This document shows positions 8,178-20,176 of a stretch of 64,000 bases of DNA, piece after piece. Both the position numbers and the translations under genes were made by a program. The stretch lies in the NCBI RefSeq assembly GCF_003334815.1, contig NZ_QOWO01000021.1. One strand, 5' to 3'. The notes under the pieces were generated by a model. That model was not told where the DNA came from and did not search any database. It saw only the letters and a program-made list of their open reading frames with translations. Position 1 is the stretch's first letter. Each line of letters opens with the position of its first letter. Source of the DNA: Escherichia coli. GTDB lineage: Bacteria > Pseudomonadota > Gammaproteobacteria > Enterobacterales > Enterobacteriaceae.

Positions 8178-11100
8178 ATGGACTTATTTGACCTGTTAAC
8201 AATTAAATTTACCTTGCCCGCGAAAGCTGCCCCTGTAAGAAAAGTGGGTGGGAATTATGTTCATAAATTACTTTGCCGATCAACAACAGTATTGGCTCAA
8301 GTCAGAAATGCACGTTTCCAAGGATATTTTGAACTTGTTACGGGTCTAAAGCCCCCTCTGGACTATGTCTATCTGAAAGATCCAAATTCCAGGGGTAAAT
8401 GCGCAGATGGTGTAGCTTCCCTTAAAGCTAAGGAACCATTTACATTCGAAAAATGGCGAGAAGATACTGAGTTAAGCTGGGAGCAATTTCCAGAGCAGGT
8501 AATTAGCACTTCACCTAATGAAATTAATGAACAATGGCATCATCAATTTCAGTTTAGAGAGGACGATCCAGAGCGCAATTCTCCCGGTCTCAGAAAACCC
8601 CAACTGGGTGCACTTCATGCAATTGCAGGCTATTTCGCCACTGATTTGCAGGTAGAACCTGCTACCGTCGTACTGCCCACTGGAACGGGAAAAACGGAAA
8701 CAATGCTGGCTACCATGATATACCAGCGATGCGAGCGAATTTTGCTCATAGTCCCATCTGACTCTCTCCGAACACAGATATCCAAAAAGTTCATCGATTT
8801 AGGATATTTGCCAGAGCTAACAGTCGTTCCACCCAACATTGCACTTCCTAATGTCGCCATTATTAAGAAAGGAATTCAGGTAGCGGAAGAAGCTAAGCAA
8901 TTAGCTTGTGAATCAAACGTCTTGGTTGCTACGACCAGCGTTTTGTCTGCCTGCTCCGAAACAGCATTAAATGCACTTTGCGAGTTGTGTAGCCATCTTT
9001 TTGTTGATGAGGCTCATCATATCTCAGCCTCATCATGGCAGACAATTCGCAAACGATTTAAAAACAAACGTGTAGTGCAGTTTACAGCTACCCCTTTTAG
9101 GAATGATAAAAAGTCCCTTGGTGGGAAAATTATCTATAACTACACGATGGGGGAAGCCCAACGAGCAGGCTATTTTACAAATGTAAATTTGCTGCCTGTA
9201 GAAGAGTATTACTCTGACCTTATGGATCACGCAATCGCAGATAAAGCTGTTGGCCAACTGCGTATAGACTTAAATAATGGCCTTGATCATTTGCTTATGG
9301 CCCGTACTAGCAATAAGCAGCGAGCAGAAGAAATACTGACTATTTATCAGAATATTGTACCGAACTTTAATCCAATCGTTATTCATTCTGATTATCCTAA
9401 AACGGAAATAAAAAAACGTCTTAATAAATTATTATCAAGACAATCAAGAATCGTTATTTGCGTAGACATGTTGGGAGAAGGCTATGACCTACCCAACCTG
9501 AAAATTGCCGCTTTGCATGATCACCATAAGTCTCTTGCAGTAACTTTGCAGTTTATTGGCCGTTTTACTCGTGTCAATAAAGCACAGAAAATTGGTCAAG
9601 CTAGTGTAGTCATGAATGTTGCAGACCCTAATGTTGAAGGTGAATTACAGCATCTATATTCAACAGATGCCGATTGGGATAACGTATTAAGGCGACTCTC
9701 TGAAGGACGAATTGCTAGAGAGATTAGGTTGCAAGAGGTCGTGGATGCCTTAAAAAGGAAAGGTGATTTACACGATCAGATCTCTCTCTGGAACCTTGAG
9801 CCAAGTTGTTCTGTCATGTTATTTAAAACATACTGTGACAATTGGGAGCCTGAAAGATACAAGGAAAAACTGCCTAGATTCGATGAATCATGGCATGCAA
9901 TAGCAGAAGATGAGAATTTGCTTGTTGTGCTAGCTGTCCAGACAACTTCAGTCCGGTGGGGAAACTACAAAGATCTTAAAGATACCAATTATAAAATTCT
10001 AATTGCTCATTGGGATCAAAGCAGATCCGCCTTGTTTGTATTCTCAAATGACTATAAAGCATTCCGGGTTGAGAATCTGGTTAGTACTATTTGTGATGAT
10101 AAATTTGAAATTGTCAGTGGTGAAAAAGTTTTTAATGTATTTAATGGTATTGAATATCCTTTAGCAAGAAATTTAGGCGCATCCCAAATTGGAGCAATAA
10201 GCTTTACTCAATATTTTGGCCCAAATGTCACTGAGGGGCTATCACTAATTGAAGCGTCTCAATCAAGCTTAAGCAATATTGCTGCATTAGGTTATGAATC
10301 CGGAAACCGTGTAATCTGGGGATGCTCGCAACGCAGAGGTAAGGTCTGGTCACCACAAAAAGGGGGTAGCATTGCTGATTGGTGCAACTGGGTTAAGAAA
10401 ACTTGGGACAAAATCTTTAGTTCTGAACCAGATCCAAACAACCTTACGCGTAACTTTTTGCGTCCTGTCCCATTACTCGAACCCTATAATGAATATCCAA
10501 TATCAGCTCAATGGGGTGAGTATTTGCTTACTACGTTCGAAGATAAAGTTATTTTTCATTTTGATGCTATATCAGCTCACTTATATTTAGTAGATGTGAA
10601 GACTGCTGGAAAGTTTGACGATGGCAATGTGCGGCTCATTTTTTCTACAGATGAAACTTCATCTGAATATAAATTATGTCTTACAGGTAGTACTACAGCA
10701 AAAGGTTATGCCTATCAGTTGATTTCTGGCCCTGAAGTCTTTGTACAGCGAGGTGAATCTGAACCTGTATCACTATCAGAATATATGGAAATTGATCCAG
10801 TAATGATTCATTACTCCGATGGCTCATTTTCTTACAACGCTCATATAGTTCATGTAAGCCCAAATATTGGCCTTTATGACAAAGACGAAATTGTAGCTTT
10901 TGATTGGAATGGAACTGATGTTCGACTGGAATCAATGGGCTATACTCGTGATCCATCATCCATCCAGTGGCGTTGGTACAGTGAAATTAAAGATAATTAC
11001 GATGTTATTATTAATGACGACGGTAAAGGTGAGTCAGCTGATTTAGTTGGGTTAAGAATAGTTGATGACTGTATTGTTCTCTCTTTAATTCATTGCAAGT

Positions 11101-11459
11101 ATTCAGGCTCAGAAGAAGCTGGAGCAAGACTTAAAGATCTTTACGAAGTATGTGGGCAGGCACAGAGATGCATTCGTTGGAAGCACCTGAATCTTTCCTA
11201 TTTATACCACCACATTAAGCGGCGCGAGGAACAGTGGCGATCGCTTGGTCATTCTCGCTTTCTAAAAGGCACTATAAAAGACCTTGCAGCTATGAAAGAG
11301 CGCTCCAGAATCACACCTCTTAAATTCCAAGTTGTTATTGTTCAACCAGGACTTAGAGTAAACAAAATTAATGAAGAAGGCCTTAAGTTACTTGGCAGTA
11401 CGGCCTTATTTATCAAGAAAACAACGATGGCAGACTTAGTTGTTATTGGTTCTAAATAG
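8178..11459 (+). CDS. SF2 helicase, DEAH/ResIII-type, with ~600-aa C-terminal region of unknown function (1093 aa)
   Basis: Motif I LPTGTGKT, motif II FVDEAHH, motif III FTATP, motif VI QFIGRFTR; RBS agagg 8 bp upstream of ATG; visibly AT-rich; possible nuclease-like signature ...DDGKGESADLVGLRIVDD...LIHCKYSG near the C-terminus. Confidence 0.8.
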   Translation: MDLFDLLTIKFTLPAKAAPVRKVGGNYVHKLLCRSTTVLAQVRNARFQGYFELVTGLKPPLDYVYLKDPNSRGKCADGVASLKAKEPFTFEKWREDTELSWEQFPEQVISTSPNEINEQWHHQFQFREDDPERNSPGLRKPQLGALHAIAGYFATDLQVEPATVVLPTGTGKTETMLATMIYQRCERILLIVPSDSLRTQISKKFIDLGYLPELTVVPPNIALPNVAIIKKGIQVAEEAKQLACESNVLVATTSVLSACSETALNALCELCSHLFVDEAHHISASSWQTIRKRFKNKRVVQFTATPFRNDKKSLGGKIIYNYTMGEAQRAGYFTNVNLLPVEEYYSDLMDHAIADKAVGQLRIDLNNGLDHLLMARTSNKQRAEEILTIYQNIVPNFNPIVIHSDYPKTEIKKRLNKLLSRQSRIVICVDMLGEGYDLPNLKIAALHDHHKSLAVTLQFIGRFTRVNKAQKIGQASVVMNVADPNVEGELQHLYSTDADWDNVLRRLSEGRIAREIRLQEVVDALKRKGDLHDQISLWNLEPSCSVMLFKTYCDNWEPERYKEKLPRFDESWHAIAEDENLLVVLAVQTTSVRWGNYKDLKDTNYKILIAHWDQSRSALFVFSNDYKAFRVENLVSTICDDKFEIVSGEKVFNVFNGIEYPLARNLGASQIGAISFTQYFGPNVTEGLSLIEASQSSLSNIAALGYESGNRVIWGCSQRRGKVWSPQKGGSIADWCNWVKKTWDKIFSSEPDPNNLTRNFLRPVPLLEPYNEYPISAQWGEYLLTTFEDKVIFHFDAISAHLYLVDVKTAGKFDDGNVRLIFSTDETSSEYKLCLTGSTTAKGYAYQLISGPEVFVQRGESEPVSLSEYMEIDPVMIHYSDGSFSYNAHIVHVSPNIGLYDKDEIVAFDWNGTDVRLESMGYTRDPSSIQWRWYSEIKDNYDVIINDDGKGESADLVGLRIVDDCIVLSLIHCKYSGSEEAGARLKDLYEVCGQAQRCIRWKHLNLSYLYHHIKRREEQWRSLGHSRFLKGTIKDLAAMKERSRITPLKFQVVIVQPGLRVNKINEEGLKLLGSTALFIKKTTMADLVVIGSK

Positions 11460-11554
11460 GACGAAAAATTGATAATATTCGATTTTAGTAATATTAAATA
11501 ACGAATTGAATATGCTATAAAAATGATGGAAAAAGCAAGAAAAGAGAGTAAATT

Positions 11555-12877
11555 ATGATCCTATTCTTTTATCCCTACATAATGCTTTGCTATAGCGCTG
11601 GATACGCTTTATTGCAAACACTGGATGGGATGGGTGTGATTAGTACCAACTTTGTAGAAATGAACGCACAGGGTGCTCTTTTGAGCAGTTACTGGTCTCC
11701 CAATAAAGTTGCTGTAGTCTTAGGAGGATGTTTTCTTGAGCTCTTTATTTTATTATTACCTTTTGTTTTCTTGAGCTCATGGATACTTGCCAGAAAAAAG
11801 GGACTCATCATTTGTTTTGTTCTTCTTATAACCCCTGGCCTATTATCGCTCTGTCACCTTCTTCCTGCTATCCAGTGGTTGCCATTGACCTATGAAATAG
11901 GAGGTACAGGTGCAACAGGTAACGCAGCTGGACTCGGAAGTCTTAGCTTCATAGGGCTATTGAGTGGTTGGATTTTGGCAGTAATCATTAGTGATATTTT
12001 TGCTACAGGAGAGAAATTCAGACAGTGGACAGATATTTTCCTAATACTGACAGCAGTTGGAAACGGTCTTTTCTGGGTATCAGACAGAGAGGTGGCTGTC
12101 GGTAAAACCGCATATGAGAAAACAATTACGGATATTAATGATGCAGCCAAATACCTTCTTTTTCAGGTGAAAGACTACAGCCGCATGTGTGACAATAACG
12201 GGCTTACCGAAATGTCATCTTGTCAGTGGGCATCGTACATTCAAGAAACGCTAGAAAATATTGCCAGTACAAAATCATCTGTTATTGAATATGTAATACC
12301 TGAAAATCTTGACACCTTCTACCGAATTCCTGAGTACTATAGCAATCAAGTATCTCCAGATAAAATCAGACAGGAATTTCAAGACTTCAATAAAAAACTA
12401 TGCCCAAATAAATCTCTTTCCAAAACAATAACACAATTGCCATCACCTTCTCGATGGTGCCAGACCCCACCCCCAGCTTACTGCAATGCCATTCAAGAGG
12501 GAAAATATAAAACAGGCATGTCAGACCGTTTCGCTGTCGCCAATGAGTGTGTAACTACATCATTATTAAGGTACCGCCAAGTTTTATTAAAAGAACAAGC
12601 TCGTTTATCCTTAAGTAAAAATGCCCCTCATTATAGATGGATGTGGTTTATTGCTATGTCTTTTTTTATTGGAGGGAAAATTGCCAATGTAATGACAAAA
12701 ATAGGTAATGTAGAGAATCGTCTCATAACTGAGAAACATAGAGTTAAATTCATCCTTCTAAAAACATGTGGTTTTATTGTGCGTACATTAATAAGATGTG
12801 CCATCTTATTTCGGAAAGTGTTTTTTTCAACGATCAATTATATCAAAAGATTGAAGAAAATAAAGCATGATACTTAA
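11555..12877 (+). CDS. Polytopic membrane protein of unknown function (440 aa), co-oriented with the helicase
   Basis: Starts 95 bp after the helicase stop with its own RBS; N-terminal ~180 aa form about five hydrophobic helices, then a Cys-containing soluble region, one more helix and a basic tail; AT-rich like the helicase. Confidence 0.6.
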   Translation: MILFFYPYIMLCYSAGYALLQTLDGMGVISTNFVEMNAQGALLSSYWSPNKVAVVLGGCFLELFILLLPFVFLSSWILARKKGLIICFVLLITPGLLSLCHLLPAIQWLPLTYEIGGTGATGNAAGLGSLSFIGLLSGWILAVIISDIFATGEKFRQWTDIFLILTAVGNGLFWVSDREVAVGKTAYEKTITDINDAAKYLLFQVKDYSRMCDNNGLTEMSSCQWASYIQETLENIASTKSSVIEYVIPENLDTFYRIPEYYSNQVSPDKIRQEFQDFNKKLCPNKSLSKTITQLPSPSRWCQTPPPAYCNAIQEGKYKTGMSDRFAVANECVTTSLLRYRQVLLKEQARLSLSKNAPHYRWMWFIAMSFFIGGKIANVMTKIGNVENRLITEKHRVKFILLKTCGFIVRTLIRCAILFRKVFFSTINYIKRLKKIKHDT

Positions 12878-12936
12878 ATAGAATAGTGACAAACACTCAA
12901 TTGCAAGGTCATTCTTTGTGTTGAATGAATAAAGAA

Positions 12937-12970
12937 CAAGGGGTACTTTCTCCTGTACCCTTGGAGTTTA
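12937..12970 (+). terminator. Candidate intrinsic terminator after the helicase/membrane cassette
   Basis: Inverted repeat caaggggtac...gtacccttgg followed by a T-rich stretch. Confidence 0.35.
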
Positions 12971-13395
12971 TATTAGATAATACATCTGAATCTACTCTGG
13001 TGATTCACACTAGCGGCAATAGTGTTTTGTACTCAACCGTTTATACAATAGCATCCATGACTAATTGAGCGTAGAGTTCAGTAAGCTTATTAATTATCCA
13101 CTTATTGAAAGAATTCGTGGAACGCTCTTACCGATAAAATCAGTGAATGTATTGCTCTTGGTGATAATGCCATTGGGAAAAATTACCAACCAGCCATCCC
13201 ATTAAGGCTAGCCGATTAACTTTAATTGAATCGCCACGGATTTGGCAAACAATTCACATGTCTCTACTACGCTTGATTTTTTCGTAGTATAACAGCGTAA
13301 CCCTTTTTCTCCCGGTTTACATACAAGAAACCTGTTCATCATTGCTGATGAAGATATATGCTGCCCTTACACGATAATTGTTTAGGATAGTAACA

Positions 13396-14361
13396 ATGCC
13401 TTTAGATTTAAGTAACACTTTAGTGATTGGCATCAGCGCGACTGCGCTTTTTGATATGAGTGAATCCGATCGCATGTTTTGCGAAACCTATGCGACCGAT
13501 CCTGATAGCGCCATTGAAAAATACCGCGCCTATATGCTGGAGCACGAAAACCAACCTTTACAGCCCGGAACAGGCTACCCTTTAGTCAAAGCGTTGCTGG
13601 GTCTGAACCAGTACCGTCAACCGGATGATAAATCACCGTTGGTTGAAGTCGTTGTGATGTCACGTAACAGCCCTGATACAGGTATCCGCGTTCTGAATAC
13701 TATTCGCCATGACAGGCTCGATATCACGCGCTCTGCCTTTACAGCAGGCGAAACTGTTGCTGATTACCTTGATGCCTTTGATGTGGATCTGTTTTTAACA
13801 ACTAACGTTGAAGATGCGCAAAAGGTGATTGATTCCCGATTCTGCGCCGCTGCAATCCTGAAAGATCCGCCTTCTGACGCATCTGATATCCCGGAAGGGC
13901 AAGTGCGCATTGCTTTTGACGGCGACGCGGTACTTTTTTCCGATCAAAGCGAACTGGTTTATAAGACCCAAGGAATGGTTGCCTTTCATGCTCAGGAAGA
14001 CGCGCAGCAGGATATCCCTATGGAAGAGGGGCCTTATGCCACTTTGCTAAAAAAAATAGCCAAGCTTCAGGAACGATTGCCGACCCGCGTTGAGTATTCT
14101 CCTGTTCGTATTGCATTGGTGACAGCCCGAAATAGCCCTTCGGAAATGCGCGTTATTAAAACGCTAAGAAGCTGGGGGGTATATGTCGATGAAGCTTTTT
14201 TTCTTGGCGGCGTAGAGAAAACAAAAGTTCTGAAGGCATTTAAACCACACATTTTCTTCGACGATCAGGATGTGCATTTAAATACAGCTGCAAAGGTTGT
14301 ACCTTCCGGGAAAGTACCTTATGCCAGTAACTCCGAACTGGCAGAGCGTGAAGCATCGTAA
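13396..14361 (+). CDS. HAD-superfamily phosphatase, 5-prime-nucleotidase-like (~321 aa)
   Basis: HAD motif I FDGDAVLF, motif II LVTARNSP, motif III/IV K...FFDDQD; ATG at 13396 with agga upstream (listed ORF starts at TTG 13378). Confidence 0.5.
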   Translation: MPLDLSNTLVIGISATALFDMSESDRMFCETYATDPDSAIEKYRAYMLEHENQPLQPGTGYPLVKALLGLNQYRQPDDKSPLVEVVVMSRNSPDTGIRVLNTIRHDRLDITRSAFTAGETVADYLDAFDVDLFLTTNVEDAQKVIDSRFCAAAILKDPPSDASDIPEGQVRIAFDGDAVLFSDQSELVYKTQGMVAFHAQEDAQQDIPMEEGPYATLLKKIAKLQERLPTRVEYSPVRIALVTARNSPSEMRVIKTLRSWGVYVDEAFFLGGVEKTKVLKAFKPHIFFDDQDVHLNTAAKVVPSGKVPYASNSELAEREAS

Positions 14362-14552
14362 TTATCGCTGATAAACCATTTAGTCATTAAGGCTGGATGG
14401 TTTGTATACCACACGCAAAATAACGGCCCTACCCCAGATCAATGCTCGCCTCTGAACACCTCTTTCCTGTGCCATTCCACAAACTGTTCGCCCGGATAAT
14501 TTTCTTTAACCGGTGGCAACGCAATCGCTTTTCCCGCAAAATCCCAGAACAG

Positions 14553-15359
14553 TCACTGTACCACTCCACCATCATTTACCGCACCGGAAACTACCACACG
14601 CATATTTTCATCCAGGTCAATCGAACCGCGATCAAACGCTTTATGATGGATTGCGCACAATGCCAGGCCATTAGGTACTTCACAAGGGCCATGGTGCTGT
14701 TTCCATCTGATATGAGCAGCTTCCAGAGCAATCGGCGCATTGTCGTGGCGCATGTTAAAGCCGCAGATAGCGCACTGATAATTGTAAGCATGTAGCACCA
14801 TCTGGCGAAACTTCGGATCGCGTTGACGAAGAGAGGTGCGAATATCAAAACTCCTCTCGTCAGCTATCTCTTCCTGAATACTGGCCGGGAAATGCGCCTC
14901 CAGGAGCTGCTGCGCCAGCGTATCAATTAACCTGTAATTTTTTTCCACCAACGCAAAATTATCGGCATCAAATCCACCAGCGACATTATATTCAATGAGT
15001 TCACGTCGGGGCGGCTGGCGGCTACCACTGGTTGAGCACAGTTCCGCGTTATGTAGTTCCCAGAAGCCATCGCCCTTCAGACGCCAGAACGGCATGTCCG
15101 GGCGCTGGTCACGGCGCTGCGGTCCATAACGTTCCAGGAGATCCAACAGGGGCTCGTAGATTTCAGAAGCATAGTTAAACAGGCGACCATGACTCTGCCG
15201 ATAGTGTGAGAGAACGTACAGCAGCAATAATGGCTTATGTGGCGCACGTTGTTCACCTTTGCGCCAGATGGTGATATTTGATATCGCTTGCTTTAGGGTT
15301 TTGTCAGAGGTCATTGCGTTGAAGAATCCATGAGCATATGTTTGCGATGATGCTCGCAA
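14553..15359 (-). CDS. HNH-motif endonuclease with N-terminal domain of unknown specificity
   Basis: C-terminal HNH signature CAICGF...EAAHIRWKQHHGP...NGLALCAIHHKAFDRG; start uncertain (M1 or the internal MTSDK...). Confidence 0.7.
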   Translation of the reverse strand: MRASSQTYAHGFFNAMTSDKTLKQAISNITIWRKGEQRAPHKPLLLLYVLSHYRQSHGRLFNYASEIYEPLLDLLERYGPQRRDQRPDMPFWRLKGDGFWELHNAELCSTSGSRQPPRRELIEYNVAGGFDADNFALVEKNYRLIDTLAQQLLEAHFPASIQEEIADERSFDIRTSLRQRDPKFRQMVLHAYNYQCAICGFNMRHDNAPIALEAAHIRWKQHHGPCEVPNGLALCAIHHKAFDRGSIDLDENMRVVVSGAVNDGGVVQ

Positions 15360-15519
15360 CTATATGTATATTCAAGGCATTATTGCAGACATCCTTTTTG
15401 CCTGACGGCTCTGTACCTGGCAGATGGAATTCTGAAAAAAATACAGCGACCAACCAGTCCTAAGCGGTCTGGTTGGTCTTTTAAATTTAAACATCAGCCA
15501 AGGAGTAACGGCATTCAAC

Positions 15520-15750
15520 TCACTCGCCATTACCCCGATTGATCTTCGCATAGTCAAACGGCGTAATCGCTCTTTCCCGATTGGCATCCAGAAAATCGAC
15601 CCACCACTGCAACATCAGCTTACGCTCATCCAGATATTCCGCTTTATGGATTATACGCGGCCTGCACTGAGTTACGTCCATGTGGCTCATCTGACGTTCA
15701 GCCGCTTTATCTCGTGCTGTTTTGGTCTCAATACTTCCATGCCGTTGCAA
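15520..15750 (-). pseudogene. 3-prime remnant of a second P4-type integrase gene
   Basis: C-terminus ...ERQMSHMDV...IHKAEYLDERKLMLQWWVDFLDANRERAITPFDYAKIN aligns with the C-terminus of the intact integrase at 18638-19903; no upstream catalytic region. Confidence 0.6.
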
Positions 15751-15918: not shown

Positions 15919-16668
15919 ATGATTGAAATGAAAAAGATTATTGCTGTTTCAGCGCTTGCTATGGTGGGCGTATTTTCAGCCCAGGCTCTGGCTGATGAGA
16001 ACAAAACTGGCTTTTATGTGACCGGTAAAGCAGGTGCTTCTGTTATGTCACTTGCAGACCAGCGTTTCCTGTCGGGTGATGGAGAGGAAACATCAAAATA
16101 TAAAGGCGGTGATGGCCATGATACGGTATTCAGTGGCGGTATCGCGGCCGGTTATGATTTTTACCCGCAGTTCAGTATTCCGGTTCGTACGGAACTGGAG
16201 TTTTACGCTCGTGGAAAAGCTGATTCGAAGTATAACGTAGATAAAGACAGCTGGTTAGGCGGTTACTGGTGTGATGACCTGAAGAATGAGGTGTCAGTCA
16301 ACACACTGATGCTGAATGCGTACTATGACTTCCGGAATGACAGTGCATTCACACCATGGGTATCTGCAGGGATTGGCTACGCCAGAATTCACCAGAAAAC
16401 AACCGGTATCAGTACCTGGGATTATGGGTACGGAAGCAGTGGTCGCGAATCGTTATCACGTTCAGGCTCTGCTGACAACTTCGCATGGAGCCTTGGCGCG
16501 GGTGTCCGCTATGACGTAACCCCGGATATCGCTCTGGACCTCAGCTATCGCTATCTTGATGCAGGTGACAGCAGTGTGAGTTACAAGGATGAGTGGGGCG
16601 ATAAATATAAATCAGAAGTTGATGTTAAAAGTCATGACATCATGCTTGGTGTGACTTATAACTTCTGA
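15919..16668 (+). CDS. Outer-membrane beta-barrel protein (porin-like small OMP)
   Basis: Signal peptide MKKIIAVSALAMVGVFSAQALA, alternating aromatic/hydrophobic pattern, C-terminal ...GVTYNF with terminal Phe. Confidence 0.65.
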   Translation: MIEMKKIIAVSALAMVGVFSAQALADENKTGFYVTGKAGASVMSLADQRFLSGDGEETSKYKGGDGHDTVFSGGIAAGYDFYPQFSIPVRTELEFYARGKADSKYNVDKDSWLGGYWCDDLKNEVSVNTLMLNAYYDFRNDSAFTPWVSAGIGYARIHQKTTGISTWDYGYGSSGRESLSRSGSADNFAWSLGAGVRYDVTPDIALDLSYRYLDAGDSSVSYKDEWGDKYKSEVDVKSHDIMLGVTYNF

Positions 16669-16819
16669 CAAAACTGCTCCTGAAAGATAATAATTACCCA
16701 TCTTCTGTAATTAAACGAAGACTCCCTGCAGTAATTGTACTGCAGGGTTGTTTGTTATCTGTTTCACAGGAGACTTCTGATTTTTATTCTCTTCACAATA
16801 ATGTTGTCGATATACTCCG

Positions 16820-18319
16820 ATGAATATCAGAAAGCTGTTTTATACGGACAATATATCCCGGATTTTATTGTTTTTATTCTTCCCGGGCATGTGTGTAATA
16901 ACCACTGCTGCATGCGGATACACTGAGAAGAATTCCACCGGGAATGTGTTGCTGCTGTTTCTCCTTCTGATTCTTGCACACAGAAATACCCTTACATCCA
17001 TTACAGCTCTGTTATTTCTGTTCTGTTGTGCACTGTATGCACCTGTCGGTATGACGTACGGAAAAATCAACAACAGTTTTATTGTCGCGTTGTTGCAGAC
17101 CACGGCGGATGAGGCTGCGGAGTTTACCGGGATGATTCCTGTTTATCATTTTCTGGTCAGTGCCGCGATTCTGGTGTTCATGGTTATTTTCTGGCGGACA
17201 CACCACCGTGGTCAACGTAACGCGATGGCTCTGTTGTTATTCGTATTATGCTCTGTAAACAGCTGGCCGTTACGGATGGTTAAAGGAACAGTTGTGGGGA
17301 CAACTGACACATTGCGTGAAATGCAGCGTTATGAACAACTGAGTCGGCACGGTGCTGACAGCTGGAAAATCCTGCCGGGAGCACCATTATATGACACGAT
17401 TGTTATTGTTACTGGTGAGAGTGTCCGCAGGGATTATATGTCGGTATATGGTTATCCCGAGCCAACCACACCATGGCTGAATACTGCTCCCGGTTTATTT
17501 ATTGACGGTTATACATCGGCAGCAGCCAGCACCGTGCCTTCCCTGAGCCGGACACTGATTTATGACTATGAGCAGAACCCTGATTCAGGCAACAACGTGG
17601 TGGCGCTGGCAGCAAAAGCAGGATACAGCACATGGTGGATATCCAATCAGGGAAAACTGGGAGAGCATGACACACGCATCTCTGTTATTGCTTCTGATGC
17701 GGACCATACTGTTTTCCTCAAGAAAGGCAGCTTTGCTTCCCGTAAAACGGATGACATGTTGTTGTTACAGGAAACAGAACGTGCGCTGACAGATACATCC
17801 ACTCCGAAGGTGATTTTCCTGCACATGATGGGGTCTCATCCGAACCCGTGTGATCGGCTTCACTCCTGGCAGAATAATTACCTGGAGCAGTATTCCCGAA
17901 AAATTGCCTGTTATCTTGCCAGCATCAGTAAACTGGATAACTTTCTTGGTCAGCTTGATGGTATCCTTCGCCGACACTCACGTCATTTCGCCATGCTTTA
18001 CTTTTCTGACCATGGGCTGTCGGTCAGCGACAGTGCTAATCCTGTTCATCATGATGGTCATGTGCAGGGAGGCTACAGCGTGCCCCTGATTATTACCGCC
18101 AGTGATATAACCTCTCATCAGTCCCTCAGCAGAAAAATCAGTGCCCGTCATTTCACAGGTATTTTTCAGTGGCTGACCGGTATTCGTACCGAAAATATAC
18201 CGCCATTCAATCCACTGACAGACGAAGATAATGAACGCATTATGGTTTTTAACGGAGAGAGGTATGTACAGGAAGACAGTCTGAAACCGCAGCCGCTTAT
18301 TCTTCCGGACCACAAGTAA
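16820..18319 (+). CDS. Phosphoethanolamine transferase-like enzyme (sulfatase superfamily; EptA/OpgE/YhbX-like architecture)
   Basis: N-terminal ~150 aa multi-helix membrane domain followed by a soluble domain with VTGESVRRDY and HMMGSHPNPCDRL motifs. Confidence 0.6.
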   Translation: MNIRKLFYTDNISRILLFLFFPGMCVITTAACGYTEKNSTGNVLLLFLLLILAHRNTLTSITALLFLFCCALYAPVGMTYGKINNSFIVALLQTTADEAAEFTGMIPVYHFLVSAAILVFMVIFWRTHHRGQRNAMALLLFVLCSVNSWPLRMVKGTVVGTTDTLREMQRYEQLSRHGADSWKILPGAPLYDTIVIVTGESVRRDYMSVYGYPEPTTPWLNTAPGLFIDGYTSAAASTVPSLSRTLIYDYEQNPDSGNNVVALAAKAGYSTWWISNQGKLGEHDTRISVIASDADHTVFLKKGSFASRKTDDMLLLQETERALTDTSTPKVIFLHMMGSHPNPCDRLHSWQNNYLEQYSRKIACYLASISKLDNFLGQLDGILRRHSRHFAMLYFSDHGLSVSDSANPVHHDGHVQGGYSVPLIITASDITSHQSLSRKISARHFTGIFQWLTGIRTENIPPFNPLTDEDNERIMVFNGERYVQEDSLKPQPLILPDHK

Positions 18320-18637: not shown

Positions 18638-19903
18638 TTACTGTTTTAATGGATTATTAATCTTTGCATATTCAAATGGACTGATAAATCTTTCTCTGTT
18701 TGCATCCAGAAAATCGGCCCACCATTGTAGCATCAAGCGGCGTTCTTCCAGATGTTCTGCTTTATGAATGTAAGCAGCACGTACACCGTTACGTTCCTGA
18801 TGGCTCATCTGACGTTCAACAGCATCGCGGGACCACAAACCTGATTCTATTAACGCACTACATGCCATCGCCCGGAACCCATGACCACAGACATCCCGGG
18901 TTGTGTCATACCCCATAACCCTCAGGGCTTTATTTACGGTGTTTTCACTGATTGGTTTACGTGGGTCATGTGCTCCCGTAAAGATCAGACCATTTTCACC
19001 AGCCCATGTCTGAAGTTCTGCCAGTATGGCTACAGCCTGTTTGCTGAGTGGCACAAGATGTGGTGTTCGCATCTTGGATCCCCGGTGTGAGAATTTTACG
19101 CCTGGCAGAGGTTCGCGCTCAGCTGGAATAGTCCACATGGCATTGTCAATATCAATTTCCGACCAGCGGGCGTATCTGAGTTCACTGGAACGAATAAAAA
19201 CCAGTAAATTCAGCATAACTGCCAGTTGGGTGACAGGCTGGCCTTTATAACCGTCAATACGCGACAGAAGTTCAGGCAGGCGTGAAAGATCCAGAGCAGG
19301 GCGGTGCTGGCGTTTTACCGTGGTCAATGCACCAGCCATATCCAGAGCCGGGTTATATCTGATGATGCCAGACTGTACGGCATAACGCATTACAGCAGAT
19401 ATTCTTTGCTGCAGACGACTGGCGATTTCATAAATTTGTTTAGCTTCTGCAGCACGAACAGGGATAAGCAGGTCCGGGGTACTGAGTGTTGTGATATCCC
19501 GGTTGCCGATAAAGGGGAAAACGTGTGTCTCGAGGCTTTTGAGTACTTTATCGCTGTGTGATTGTGCCCATTGTTTATTACTGACATGCCAGCGTCGTGC
19601 AATATGTTCAAAAGAGAGTTGTAAATCAGGGACTACTTTTTTAGCTCTTTTCTGTTCGCAAGGGTCAATCCCCTCCGAAATCAGTTTTCGGGCTTCATCC
19701 CGTTTTGTACGAGCTTCGGAGAGAGATACTTCCGGATACACACCAAGTGCCAGAGTCTTCTCCTTACCCAGAATACGATAACGGAGACGCCAGTAACGGG
19801 AACCATTGGGATGTACCAGCAGGAACATGCCAGCCCCGTCAGTGAGTTTATAAGCCTTGTCAGTGGGCTTTGCAGCCCGGATTTTTGCGTCAGTCAGTGC
19901 CAT
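18638..19903 (-). CDS. int: P4-type tyrosine integrase (421 aa)
   Basis: MALTDAKIRAAKPTDKAYKLTDGAGMFLLVHPNGSRYWRLRYR... is a classic P4-like integrase N-terminus; lies next to the tRNA 3-prime end in the same orientation. Confidence 0.9.
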   Translation of the reverse strand: MALTDAKIRAAKPTDKAYKLTDGAGMFLLVHPNGSRYWRLRYRILGKEKTLALGVYPEVSLSEARTKRDEARKLISEGIDPCEQKRAKKVVPDLQLSFEHIARRWHVSNKQWAQSHSDKVLKSLETHVFPFIGNRDITTLSTPDLLIPVRAAEAKQIYEIASRLQQRISAVMRYAVQSGIIRYNPALDMAGALTTVKRQHRPALDLSRLPELLSRIDGYKGQPVTQLAVMLNLLVFIRSSELRYARWSEIDIDNAMWTIPAEREPLPGVKFSHRGSKMRTPHLVPLSKQAVAILAELQTWAGENGLIFTGAHDPRKPISENTVNKALRVMGYDTTRDVCGHGFRAMACSALIESGLWSRDAVERQMSHQERNGVRAAYIHKAEHLEERRLMLQWWADFLDANRERFISPFEYAKINNPLKQ

Positions 19904-20100: not shown

Positions 20101-20176
20101 TGGTGCCCGGACTCGGAATCGAACCAAGGACACGGGGATTTTCAATCCCCTGCTCTACCGACTGAGCTATCCGGGC
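20101..20176 (-). tRNA. pheV: tRNA-Phe (GAA)
   Basis: Reverse complement reads GCCCGGATAGCTCAGTCGGTAGAGCAGGGGATTGAAAATCCCCGTGTCCTTGGTTCGATTCCGAGTCCGGGCACCA. Confidence 0.95.

Follow-up and report, generated by a model that had tools for sequence, protein, structure and literature searches.

Organisation of the pheV locus

The window, a 64,000-nucleotide stretch of Escherichia coli DNA (contig NZ_QOWO01000021.1), contains the pheV (tRNA-Phe) region. The tRNA gene, at which the island is integrated, lies at positions 20101 to 20176 on the minus strand, as found by ARAGORN and by synteny with annotated genomes, which also places the core genes yqgA, speC and nupG beyond it. On the other side, an intact P4-type tyrosine integrase of 421 aa is encoded on the minus strand at 18638 to 19903 in the open reading frame listing (NCBIfam PRK09692, 1.1e-73; RefSeq WP_001218789.1, 'tyrosine-type recombinase/integrase'). 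A further minus-strand open reading frame of 76 aa, at 15520 to 15750, is the C-terminal remnant of another P4-family integrase, distinct from the intact one. It is 63% identical to residues 352–416 of the intact enzyme, matches PRK09692 at model positions 355–400, and carries the RefSeq label 'integrase, incomplete', with the N-terminus missing, in a 99.9%-identical genome.

Two genes on the plus strand are flanked by the intact integrase and the remnant, at 15928 to 16668 (outer-membrane protein, 246 aa) and 16820 to 18319 (transferase, 499 aa). The open reading frames thus agree with the original prediction, made from the sequence alone, of co-oriented island cargo next to the integrase. 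Both genes are considered real because their protein products exactly match NCBI entries. Neither was matched by any defence-system model in PADLOC. An in-frame ATG at 15919 would give an outer-membrane protein of 249 aa, as against the 246 aa from the RefSeq ATG at 15928.

The G+C content is 0.439 at positions 1–20100 and 0.512 on the core side. An integrase at the 3' end of a tRNA gene and a G+C content below that of the core are both characteristic of tRNA-associated P4-integrase islands. The integrase remnant is the inner edge of a conserved head module of the island. The 23-bp 3' end of pheV, searched for as a distal direct repeat with up to 3 mismatches, occurs in a single copy in the window, and the distal end of the island may lie beyond the window or be degraded.

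The two plus-strand genes are separated by 151 bp. A consensus scan of this gap identified a plus-strand hairpin at 16724 to 16747, with a 10-bp stem including 6 G-C pairs followed by TTGTTTGTTA, which is terminator-like in sequence. Among alleles of the module, the hairpin is kept in E. coli, imperfect in the tia allele and absent in Salmonella.

The outer-membrane protein

The product of the first gene begins with a typical signal peptide (MKKIIAVSALAMVGVFSAQALA|DE), and its C-terminus reads ...TYNF, with a terminal Phe. It matches the Pfam families OMP_b-brl (2.3e-24) and Opacity (2.4e-5). An AlphaFold2 model (pLDDT 88.8) includes 8 long strands, and Foldseek matched it to NspA, OmpA, Ail and OmpX. 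Hence, the signal peptide, terminal Phe and β-barrel in the original prediction were all borne out; what had not been recognised was the family, that of the Hra/Tia/Hek/Hes adhesins. Membership was judged against two references, the protein named 'invasion outer membrane protein Tia' in RefSeq (67% identity, full length) and Tia cluster P0177 (68% identity). A size of ~25 kDa, a signal peptide, a predicted 8-stranded barrel, variable loops and a C-terminal aromatic residue, as in this family, are all present. The variability is centred on the surface loops, the majority-residue fraction being 0.58–0.61 in loops L1–L3 and 0.82–0.93 in the membrane-proximal strands.

Judged by sequence, the protein belongs to the Hra/Tia/Hek/Hes family as an allele that has no name of its own. 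It is not Hes, as the hes-specific primer hes_det1 had no match in the window within 3 mismatches and hes_det2 matched with 1 mismatch, which indicates a different allele. Haemagglutination, autoaggregation, adhesion or invasion have been demonstrated in the literature for Hes, Hra1, Tia and Hek. By analogy with these members, the protein would be an outer-membrane adhesin with long variable surface loops that mediates one or more of the same activities.

The transferase: fold and catalytic residues

The second gene encodes a sulfatase-superfamily membrane enzyme, as predicted. Pfam Sulfatase (PF00884) covers residues 193–445 (4e-36), and there is a weak match to EptA_B_N (6.5e-4). Five hydrophobic segments fall within residues 11–154, and the AlphaFold2 model (pLDDT 89.5) is helical at residues 11–177. 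Top Foldseek matches of this model were EcEptC (6a82; E=3e-18, TM 0.75), MCR-1 (9nww) and NmEptA (5fgn). Alignments of the model with full-length MCR-1 (9nww) and NmEptA (5fgn) span ~540 columns, with a TMq of 0.64 for the former.

The catalytic Thr and zinc ligands, which were to be checked, are all in place: the set E200, T238, H335, H340, D397, H398 and H411 is complete and aligns with the equivalents in EptA, EptB, EptC, OpgE and YhbX. In an alignment of 64 sequences, E200, H335 and H340 are invariant, T238 is Thr in 62 sequences and Ser in 2, and D397 and H398 are each conserved in 63. H411 is found in 54 of the 64, and is replaced by Arg in EptC. We take the corresponding residues of MCR-1 to be E246, T285, H390, H395, D465, H466 and H478; the assignment of T285 is a residue count on the pairwise alignment of the transferase with MCR-1. 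The sulfatase/alkaline-phosphatase-fold domain, the catalytic and zinc residues and the five N-terminal membrane helices are those of the phosphoethanolamine (PEtN) transferase superfamily, and on the basis of sequence and predicted structure the enzyme is a PEtN transferase. The protein exactly matches an NCBI entry in a cluster of 8941 members with a modal length of 499 aa, and the gene is apparently intact.

Placement of the transferase among characterised enzymes

In blastp comparisons, the transferase scored 235 bits with OpgE, 107 with YhbX, 94 with EptC (25% identity), 55 with EptB and 47 with EptA. The identity to OpgE is 32% over 456 aa, membrane domain included, whereas that to EptA is 21% and restricted to the catalytic domain. 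An approximate neighbour-joining tree, which carries no support values, placed the transferase in a clade beside OpgE but not within it. Thus, by sequence comparison the nearest characterised relative is OpgE, and not EptA, MCR, EptB or EptC. Orthology with OpgE was not sustained, given the neighbouring rather than shared clade and a gene that lies on a tRNA island and not beside ompX. Nor is there support for the island pair having arisen by duplication of the core ompX-opgE neighbourhood, since similarity between the outer-membrane protein and OmpX is marginal and local.

The original prediction was of an enzyme with the EptA/MCR-like domain layout, of a horizontally acquired kind that can change polymyxin susceptibility. 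On this reading, the transferase would modify lipid A or the LPS core and lower susceptibility to polymyxins or cationic peptides. Superfamily, architecture and the full catalytic set are indeed held in common with such enzymes, the best NCBIfam match is to CptA, the heptose-I PEtN transferase (PRK10649, 109.9 bits), and some databases label 52–57%-identical homologues 'lipid A phosphoethanolamine transferase'. The curated cut-offs were missed in every case, being 404 bits for CptA, 660 for EptA (PRK11598, 41.6 bits), 500 for the lipid A transferase domain model (71.7 bits), 900 for NF012179 (87.8 bits) and 1075–1250 for the MCR families (21–31 bits). Moreover, the CptA/EptC models match only residues 192–483. 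On these cut-offs and the low pairwise scores, membership of the EptA/MCR group and membership of the CptA/EptC heptose-I transferases were both rejected. The architecture put forward originally therefore holds and the EptA/MCR clade does not. Several homologues bear the JGI name 'glucan phosphoethanolaminetransferase'.

Published susceptibility data point the same way. A homologue of the at least 99%-identical class, peaX, is carried by an O157 strain that was sensitive to colistin, with an MIC not significantly different from those of strains lacking peaX (PMC6408774). A K-12 mutant in the pseudogene yjgX was a false positive in a screen for susceptibility to the defensin HNP-1. The strains compared for colistin were non-isogenic, and a small effect on lipid A or the core may therefore exist. 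An enzyme with OpgE as its nearest characterised relative would not be expected to affect polymyxin resistance strongly, and the MICs leave the proposed change in polymyxin susceptibility weak. Overall, a lipid A or LPS-core transferase of this kind is unlikely.

Distribution and linkage of the two genes

In 1337 of 5426 complete E. coli genomes, the genes for the outer-membrane protein and the transferase lie side by side. The pair was found at pheV, at another tRNA-Phe gene beside papGII and, in UTI89, on the leuX island, and it is retained in islands whose remaining cargo differs greatly. In Salmonella, the two genes are again adjacent and co-oriented, with protein identities of 53% for the outer-membrane protein and 57% for the transferase. 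Distant homologues of either partner stand alone, so that obligatory pairing was rejected. Transferases lacking an adhesin neighbour include plasmid paralogues (52% and 51% identity) and homologues in Erwinia and Enterobacter lignolyticus, and a Providencia homologue of the outer-membrane protein has no transferase neighbour.

In K-12, only the 3' half of the transferase gene is present, and its 'phosphoethanolamine transferase' annotation records a frameshift, an internal stop and a missing N-terminus. This copy is presumably the yjgX pseudogene, the name used in papers.

The pair is already known and is well documented beside an integrase in many E. coli pathogenicity islands. Under the published names yjgX, peaX, 'putative opgE' and 'sulfatase', the transferase gene adjoins hes, hek or tia, and islands with a described pair include LAA, SE-PAI, PAI II536 and the papGII islands. 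In the LAA island, hes adjoins a 'sulfatase' with its function listed as 'Unknown'; SE-PAI includes an integrase, a sulfatase and Tia; and a genome-wide association study of bloodstream infection reported 'putative opgE' near integrases and papGII.

Proposed function of the module

We propose that the locus is a conserved head module of tRNA-associated islands in which an OpgE-like transferase with a glycan acceptor and an adhesin act independently (probability roughly 0.75). The P4-type integrase is adjoined by two cell-envelope genes that are inherited together but probably function separately. According to the model, the transferase would reside in the inner membrane, with five N-terminal helices and, in the periplasm, a sulfatase-fold domain. 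The zinc ligands, going by the solved relatives, would be E200, T238, D397 and H398, and Thr238 would accept phosphoethanolamine from phosphatidylethanolamine before transferring it to an acceptor at the periplasmic face. The acceptor is most likely a glycan rather than lipid A because the nearest characterised relative is OpgE, a paralogue of 32% identity on which this assignment is based; candidates would be osmoregulated periplasmic glucans or some other sugar of the envelope. To our knowledge, sequence does not reliably predict acceptor specificity in the PEtN transferase superfamily.

Adjacency kept down to 53% and 57% identity in Salmonella may reflect a functional link, as opposed to mere co-inheritance. 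In such a couple, the transferase would add PEtN either to the adjacent adhesin or to a glycan close by, at the surface or in the periplasm, and so tune adhesion, aggregation, antigenicity or phage-receptor use. Co-orientation is maintained over the same range, the pair stays together across islands of very different cargo, and PEtN transferases that modify proteins are already well established (reviewed in PMC10525099), Neisseria PptA acting on pilin and Campylobacter EptC on FlgG. A couple of this kind would represent a new acceptor class for the island-borne PEtN transferase clade. However, hes cloned alone in HB101 confers haemagglutination and autoaggregation, the more remote homologues of both partners are found singly, the terminator-like hairpin lies between the two genes, and a protein acceptor is without sequence evidence. 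Functional coupling is thus quite improbable.

The transferase could also be a passenger in decay that no longer has a function and persists through its place between the integrase and a selected adhesin, as truncated or frameshifted copies in many genomes (K-12 included), the many partial cluster members and IS3 insertions in the matched module region of four records (EC556, EC571 and EC581 among them) might suggest, but this is very doubtful given an open reading frame in the window that is full length and keeps every catalytic residue, and an identity between alleles of 91% for the transferase versus 67% for the adhesin, a difference that suggests purifying selection.

For the independently acting pair with an OpgE-like transferase, the practical value lies in the corrected annotation of a gene carried by roughly one in four complete E. 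coli genomes. The usual label is 'phosphoethanolamine transferase', at times with 'lipid A' in front, and the colistin-resistance reading that it invites is unsupported, because the gene groups with OpgE-like enzymes. At the head of pheV, pheU, leuX and selC islands, the neighbours of the transferase gene are Hra-family adhesins, and the adhesin gene is accordingly a virulence-associated marker.

Comparison with known systems

The genes described as yjgX, peaX (in O157:H7 NADC 6564), 'putative opgE' and the LAA 'sulfatase' (ORF4) form one family, with ~90–100% nucleotide or protein identity, and occupy the same position at a tRNA locus beside a P4-type integrase and an Hra-family gene. There is no substantive difference between them and the transferase gene of the window, except that the K-12 copy lacks the 5' half and the allele studied here is intact.

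The adhesin resembles Hra1, Hra2, Tia, Hek and Hes in size, signal peptide, C-terminal Phe and an 8-stranded barrel (predicted for the protein in the window), as well as in variation centred on the loops and placement at the head of pathogenicity islands. It differs in being an unnamed allele, ~67–68% identical to Tia.

With OpgE (YbiP), the periplasmic-glucan PEtN transferase of K-12, the transferase shares a GSHPxxCD motif and the full catalytic set. OpgE is encoded at the core ompX-opgE locus, whereas the transferase is encoded on a mobile island and belongs to a separate neighbour-joining clade. EptA/MCR-1, EptB and EptC (CptA) have the superfamily, architecture, predicted fold and catalytic residues in common with it, but are 21–25% identical over the catalytic domain only.

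Lpt-O of Shigella flexneri, which transfers PEtN to O antigen, is likewise horizontally acquired and directed at a glycan. The paper on Lpt-O reports 31–38% identity to 'sulfatases' of E. coli, Erwinia and Pantoea, and a small E. coli plasmid, considered alongside, encodes a 30%-identical enzyme. A blastp comparison of the transferase with Lpt-O from the S. flexneri plasmid pSFxv_2 (NC_017320) gave no match, and kinship between the two was rejected. By annotation, Lpt-O belongs to the LTA-synthase family, and its likeness to the transferase is one of horizontal acquisition and probable glycan acceptor, with no similarity detectable by blastp.

Gene organisation at pheV

The window is a segment of the E. 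coli chromosome surrounding the tRNA-Phe gene pheV, placed by ARAGORN at 20101–20176 on the minus strand. The core side carries yqgA, speC, nupG and mltC, as read from a RefSeq genome 99.9% identical to the window. The ORF list gives an intact integrase of 421 aa (18638–19903, minus strand), a transferase of 499 aa (16820–18319, plus strand), an outer-membrane protein (OMP) of 249 or 246 aa (15919 or 15928 to 16668, plus strand) and a 76-aa ORF (15520–15750, minus strand), which is 63% identical to residues 352–416 of the intact integrase and is annotated in RefSeq as an incomplete integrase. The original prediction of two co-oriented genes between an intact integrase and an integrase remnant was confirmed in every detail by the ORF list and the remnant alignment, as were the signal peptide of the smaller protein and its C-terminal Phe. 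The integrase, transferase, OMP and remnant genes form the head module together with the tRNA gene. G+C content is 0.47–0.48 in these genes, 0.44 on the island side and 0.51 in the core. The search for a further copy of the 23-bp 3' end of pheV, which commonly serves as the direct repeat of such islands, found none in the window with up to 3 mismatches allowed; the distal island boundary either lies beyond the window or has been eroded.

Behind the remnant lies defence-type cargo (8178–15359). It encodes a 1093-aa DEAD/DEAH helicase (8178–11459) with weak PbeA and restriction-enzyme matches, a 440-aa membrane protein without a family match (11555–12877), a 5'-nucleotidase-like protein (13378–14361) matching PADLOC candidate PDC-S08 at 1.7e-134, and, by family annotation, a phosphorothioate-DNA-binding HNH restriction endonuclease (14553–15359); in a near-identical genome, this last gene has an internal stop and is annotated as a pseudogene. 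At pheV of strain 06-00048 (L011 1–9006, compared with window 1–15750), the head module is the same, including the remnant, and 97.8% identical, whereas the distal cargo is wholly unlike that of the window and comprises genes for a TerB-N-domain protein, an ATPase and a DEAD/DEAH helicase together with IbrB/PAPS-reductase-like genes. The remnant may mark a junction at which recombination exchanges the defence cargo lying behind it.

Assignment of the transferase

The enzyme is predicted to be a phosphoethanolamine (PEtN) transferase from its sequence, its active site and the modelled fold. It has a Pfam Sulfatase match (4e-36) over residues 193–445 and a weak EptA_B_N match over residues 44–143, and residues 11–154 contain five hydrophobic segments. 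A Foldseek search with the AlphaFold2 model (pLDDT 89.5) had as its top matches EptC from E. coli (catalytic domain, TM 0.75), MCR-1 over its full length (TMq 0.64) and EptA from N. meningitidis. In an alignment of 64 sequences, including K-12 EptA, EptB, EptC, OpgE and YhbX, E200, H335 and H340 are invariant (64/64), 62 sequences have T and two have S at T238, D397 and H398 are kept in 63, and H411 in 54. We take E200, T238, H335, H340, D397, H398 and H411 to correspond to MCR-1 E246, T285, H390, H395, D465, H466 and H478, the T285 equivalence being obtained by residue count on a pairwise alignment. Hence, the catalytic residues, whose absence had been named as grounds for rejecting the assignment, are present.

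The original prediction further placed the enzyme in an EptA/MCR-like family. Its NCBIfam scores lie far below the curated cut-offs for CptA (110 vs 404), lipid A transferase (72 vs 500), EptA (42 vs 660) and the MCR families (21–31 vs 1075–1250). The blastp match to K-12 OpgE reached 235 bits (32% identity over 456 aa, membrane domain included), as compared with 107 for YhbX, 94 for EptC, 55 for EptB and 47 for EptA. In an approximate neighbour-joining tree, the enzyme falls in a large enterobacterial clade beside the OpgE clade and well apart from EptA, EptB and EptC, and it shares a GSHPxxCD motif with OpgE. These data favour an OpgE-like over an EptA/MCR-like enzyme; the PEtN-transferase part of the prediction stands and the EptA/MCR affiliation does not. 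Given an OpgE-like enzyme, the suggested relevance to polymyxin is unlikely. Osmoregulated periplasmic glucans are the substrates to which OpgE adds PEtN (PMC3818809; reviewed in PMC10525099); no report of the acceptor was found in the literature on the window gene. Kinship to the Shigella O-antigen enzyme Lpt-O was rejected because blastp similarity to Lpt-O from pSFxv_2 was absent.

A 5.1-kb ColE1-like E. coli plasmid of Rop type, p3-S1-CAM-01-C, carries little beyond IS1 and a 508-aa PEtN transferase (L003 2785–4311). The latter belongs to a third OpgE-like clade; its sequence identity is 30% with the window enzyme and 31% with OpgE, and it has a 45%-identical relative on another 4-kb plasmid. 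It is a mobile putative PEtN transferase distinct from Lpt-O.

Distribution and linkage of the two genes

Both proteins have exact matches at NCBI, in clusters of 1218 (OMP) and 8941 (transferase) members. Megablast with the two-gene segment found the pair adjacent, with both genes at one place and coverage of at least 80%, in 1337 of the 5426 complete E. coli genomes, where RefSeq labels them 'outer membrane protein' and 'phosphoethanolamine transferase', some OMP alleles being labelled 'tia: invasion outer membrane protein Tia'. The integrase-adjoining pair also occurs at a tRNA-Phe beside papGII and in a UTI89 island, which the literature locates at leuX. In K-12 strains, the transferase gene is reduced to its 3' 49%, adjoins the leuX integrase and is flagged by RefSeq as a defective 'phosphoethanolamine transferase'; this remnant is presumably the yjgX pseudogene, in keeping with how the published studies apply that name. 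In the closest relatives of the window (99.9%; EC556, EC571, EC581 and C5), an IS3-family transposase inside the module-query region cuts the match in two, and one of the IS3-interrupted records, NZ_CP010123.1, is entered as a 214-kb plasmid despite its chromosomal-type tRNA-island module.

Functional coupling of enzyme and adhesin is improbable. A co-oriented pair is kept in a Salmonella island (OMP 53%, transferase 57% identity), which speaks for a link. However, an obligatory link is opposed by plasmid transferase paralogues (52% and 51% identity) without an OMP neighbour, by solitary transferase homologues in Erwinia and Enterobacter lignolyticus and solitary Hra-like OMPs in Providencia and Proteus, by a terminator-like hairpin between the genes (16724–16747), and by the published sufficiency of Hes alone in HB101 for its phenotypes. 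Allele-to-allele identity is 91% for the transferase vs 67% for the adhesin, a contrast consistent with purifying selection acting on the transferase and diversifying pressure acting on the adhesin.

The Salmonella enterica pair has a 10-C run (4959–4968) and a 9-A run (4935–4943) 32–66 bp before the start codon of the transferase gene (L006 4935–4968). By analogy with some Neisseria and Pasteurella PEtN transferases, these tracts could make transferase expression phase-variable; the E. coli window has no tract of this kind.

The outer-membrane protein

The OMP has a Pfam OMP_b-brl match (2.3e-24) as well as OmpA-like and Opacity matches, and shares 67% full-length identity with a protein named Tia in RefSeq and 68% identity with the Tia cluster. 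Its AlphaFold2 model (46-sequence alignment, pLDDT 88.8) has eight long strands and matched the small 8-stranded barrels NspA, OmpA, Ail, OmpX and OmpW in Foldseek. E. coli alleles form a dense series of 55%–98% identity, with variability in the distal parts of hairpins 1–3 (majority-residue fraction 0.58–0.61) and conservation in the membrane-proximal strands and periplasmic turns (0.82–0.93). These features are those published for the Hra family (Hra1, Hra2, Tia, Hek and Hes), island-encoded adhesins/invasins differing in exposed loops (PMC5539235), and the OMP is an allele of an Hra/Tia/Hek-family adhesin. Its identification as hes was rejected, the hes-specific primer hes_det1 having no match and hes_det2 matching with one mismatch.

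In the K-12 core, opgE directly adjoins ompX, which encodes a small 8-stranded OMP, in convergent orientation with a 48-bp gap (L014 3451–5598). This resemblance to the island pair looks coincidental because the island OMP has only marginal local similarity to OmpX (E=3e-4 over 25 aa).

Comparison with published islands

The table published for the LAA island contains pheV, int, sisA, a yhbX fragment, a 'sulfatase' (ORF4, function 'Unknown') and hes (ORF5), and SE-PAI includes an integrase, a sulfatase, Tia and ShiA. A bloodstream-infection GWAS reported 'putative opgE' genes adjoining integrases and the papGII operon. In O157:H7 NADC 6564, the transferase gene is peaX, and the colistin MIC of the peaX strain (0.66 vs 0.41 ug/mL) did not differ significantly, the strain still being sensitive (PMC6408774). 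The head module of integrase, putative OpgE-like PEtN transferase and Hra-family adhesin is real, ordinary and widespread, and has already been annotated and repeatedly published; the refinements made here are the placement of the enzyme as probably OpgE-like and of the OMP as a Hra/Tia/Hek-family adhesin allele.
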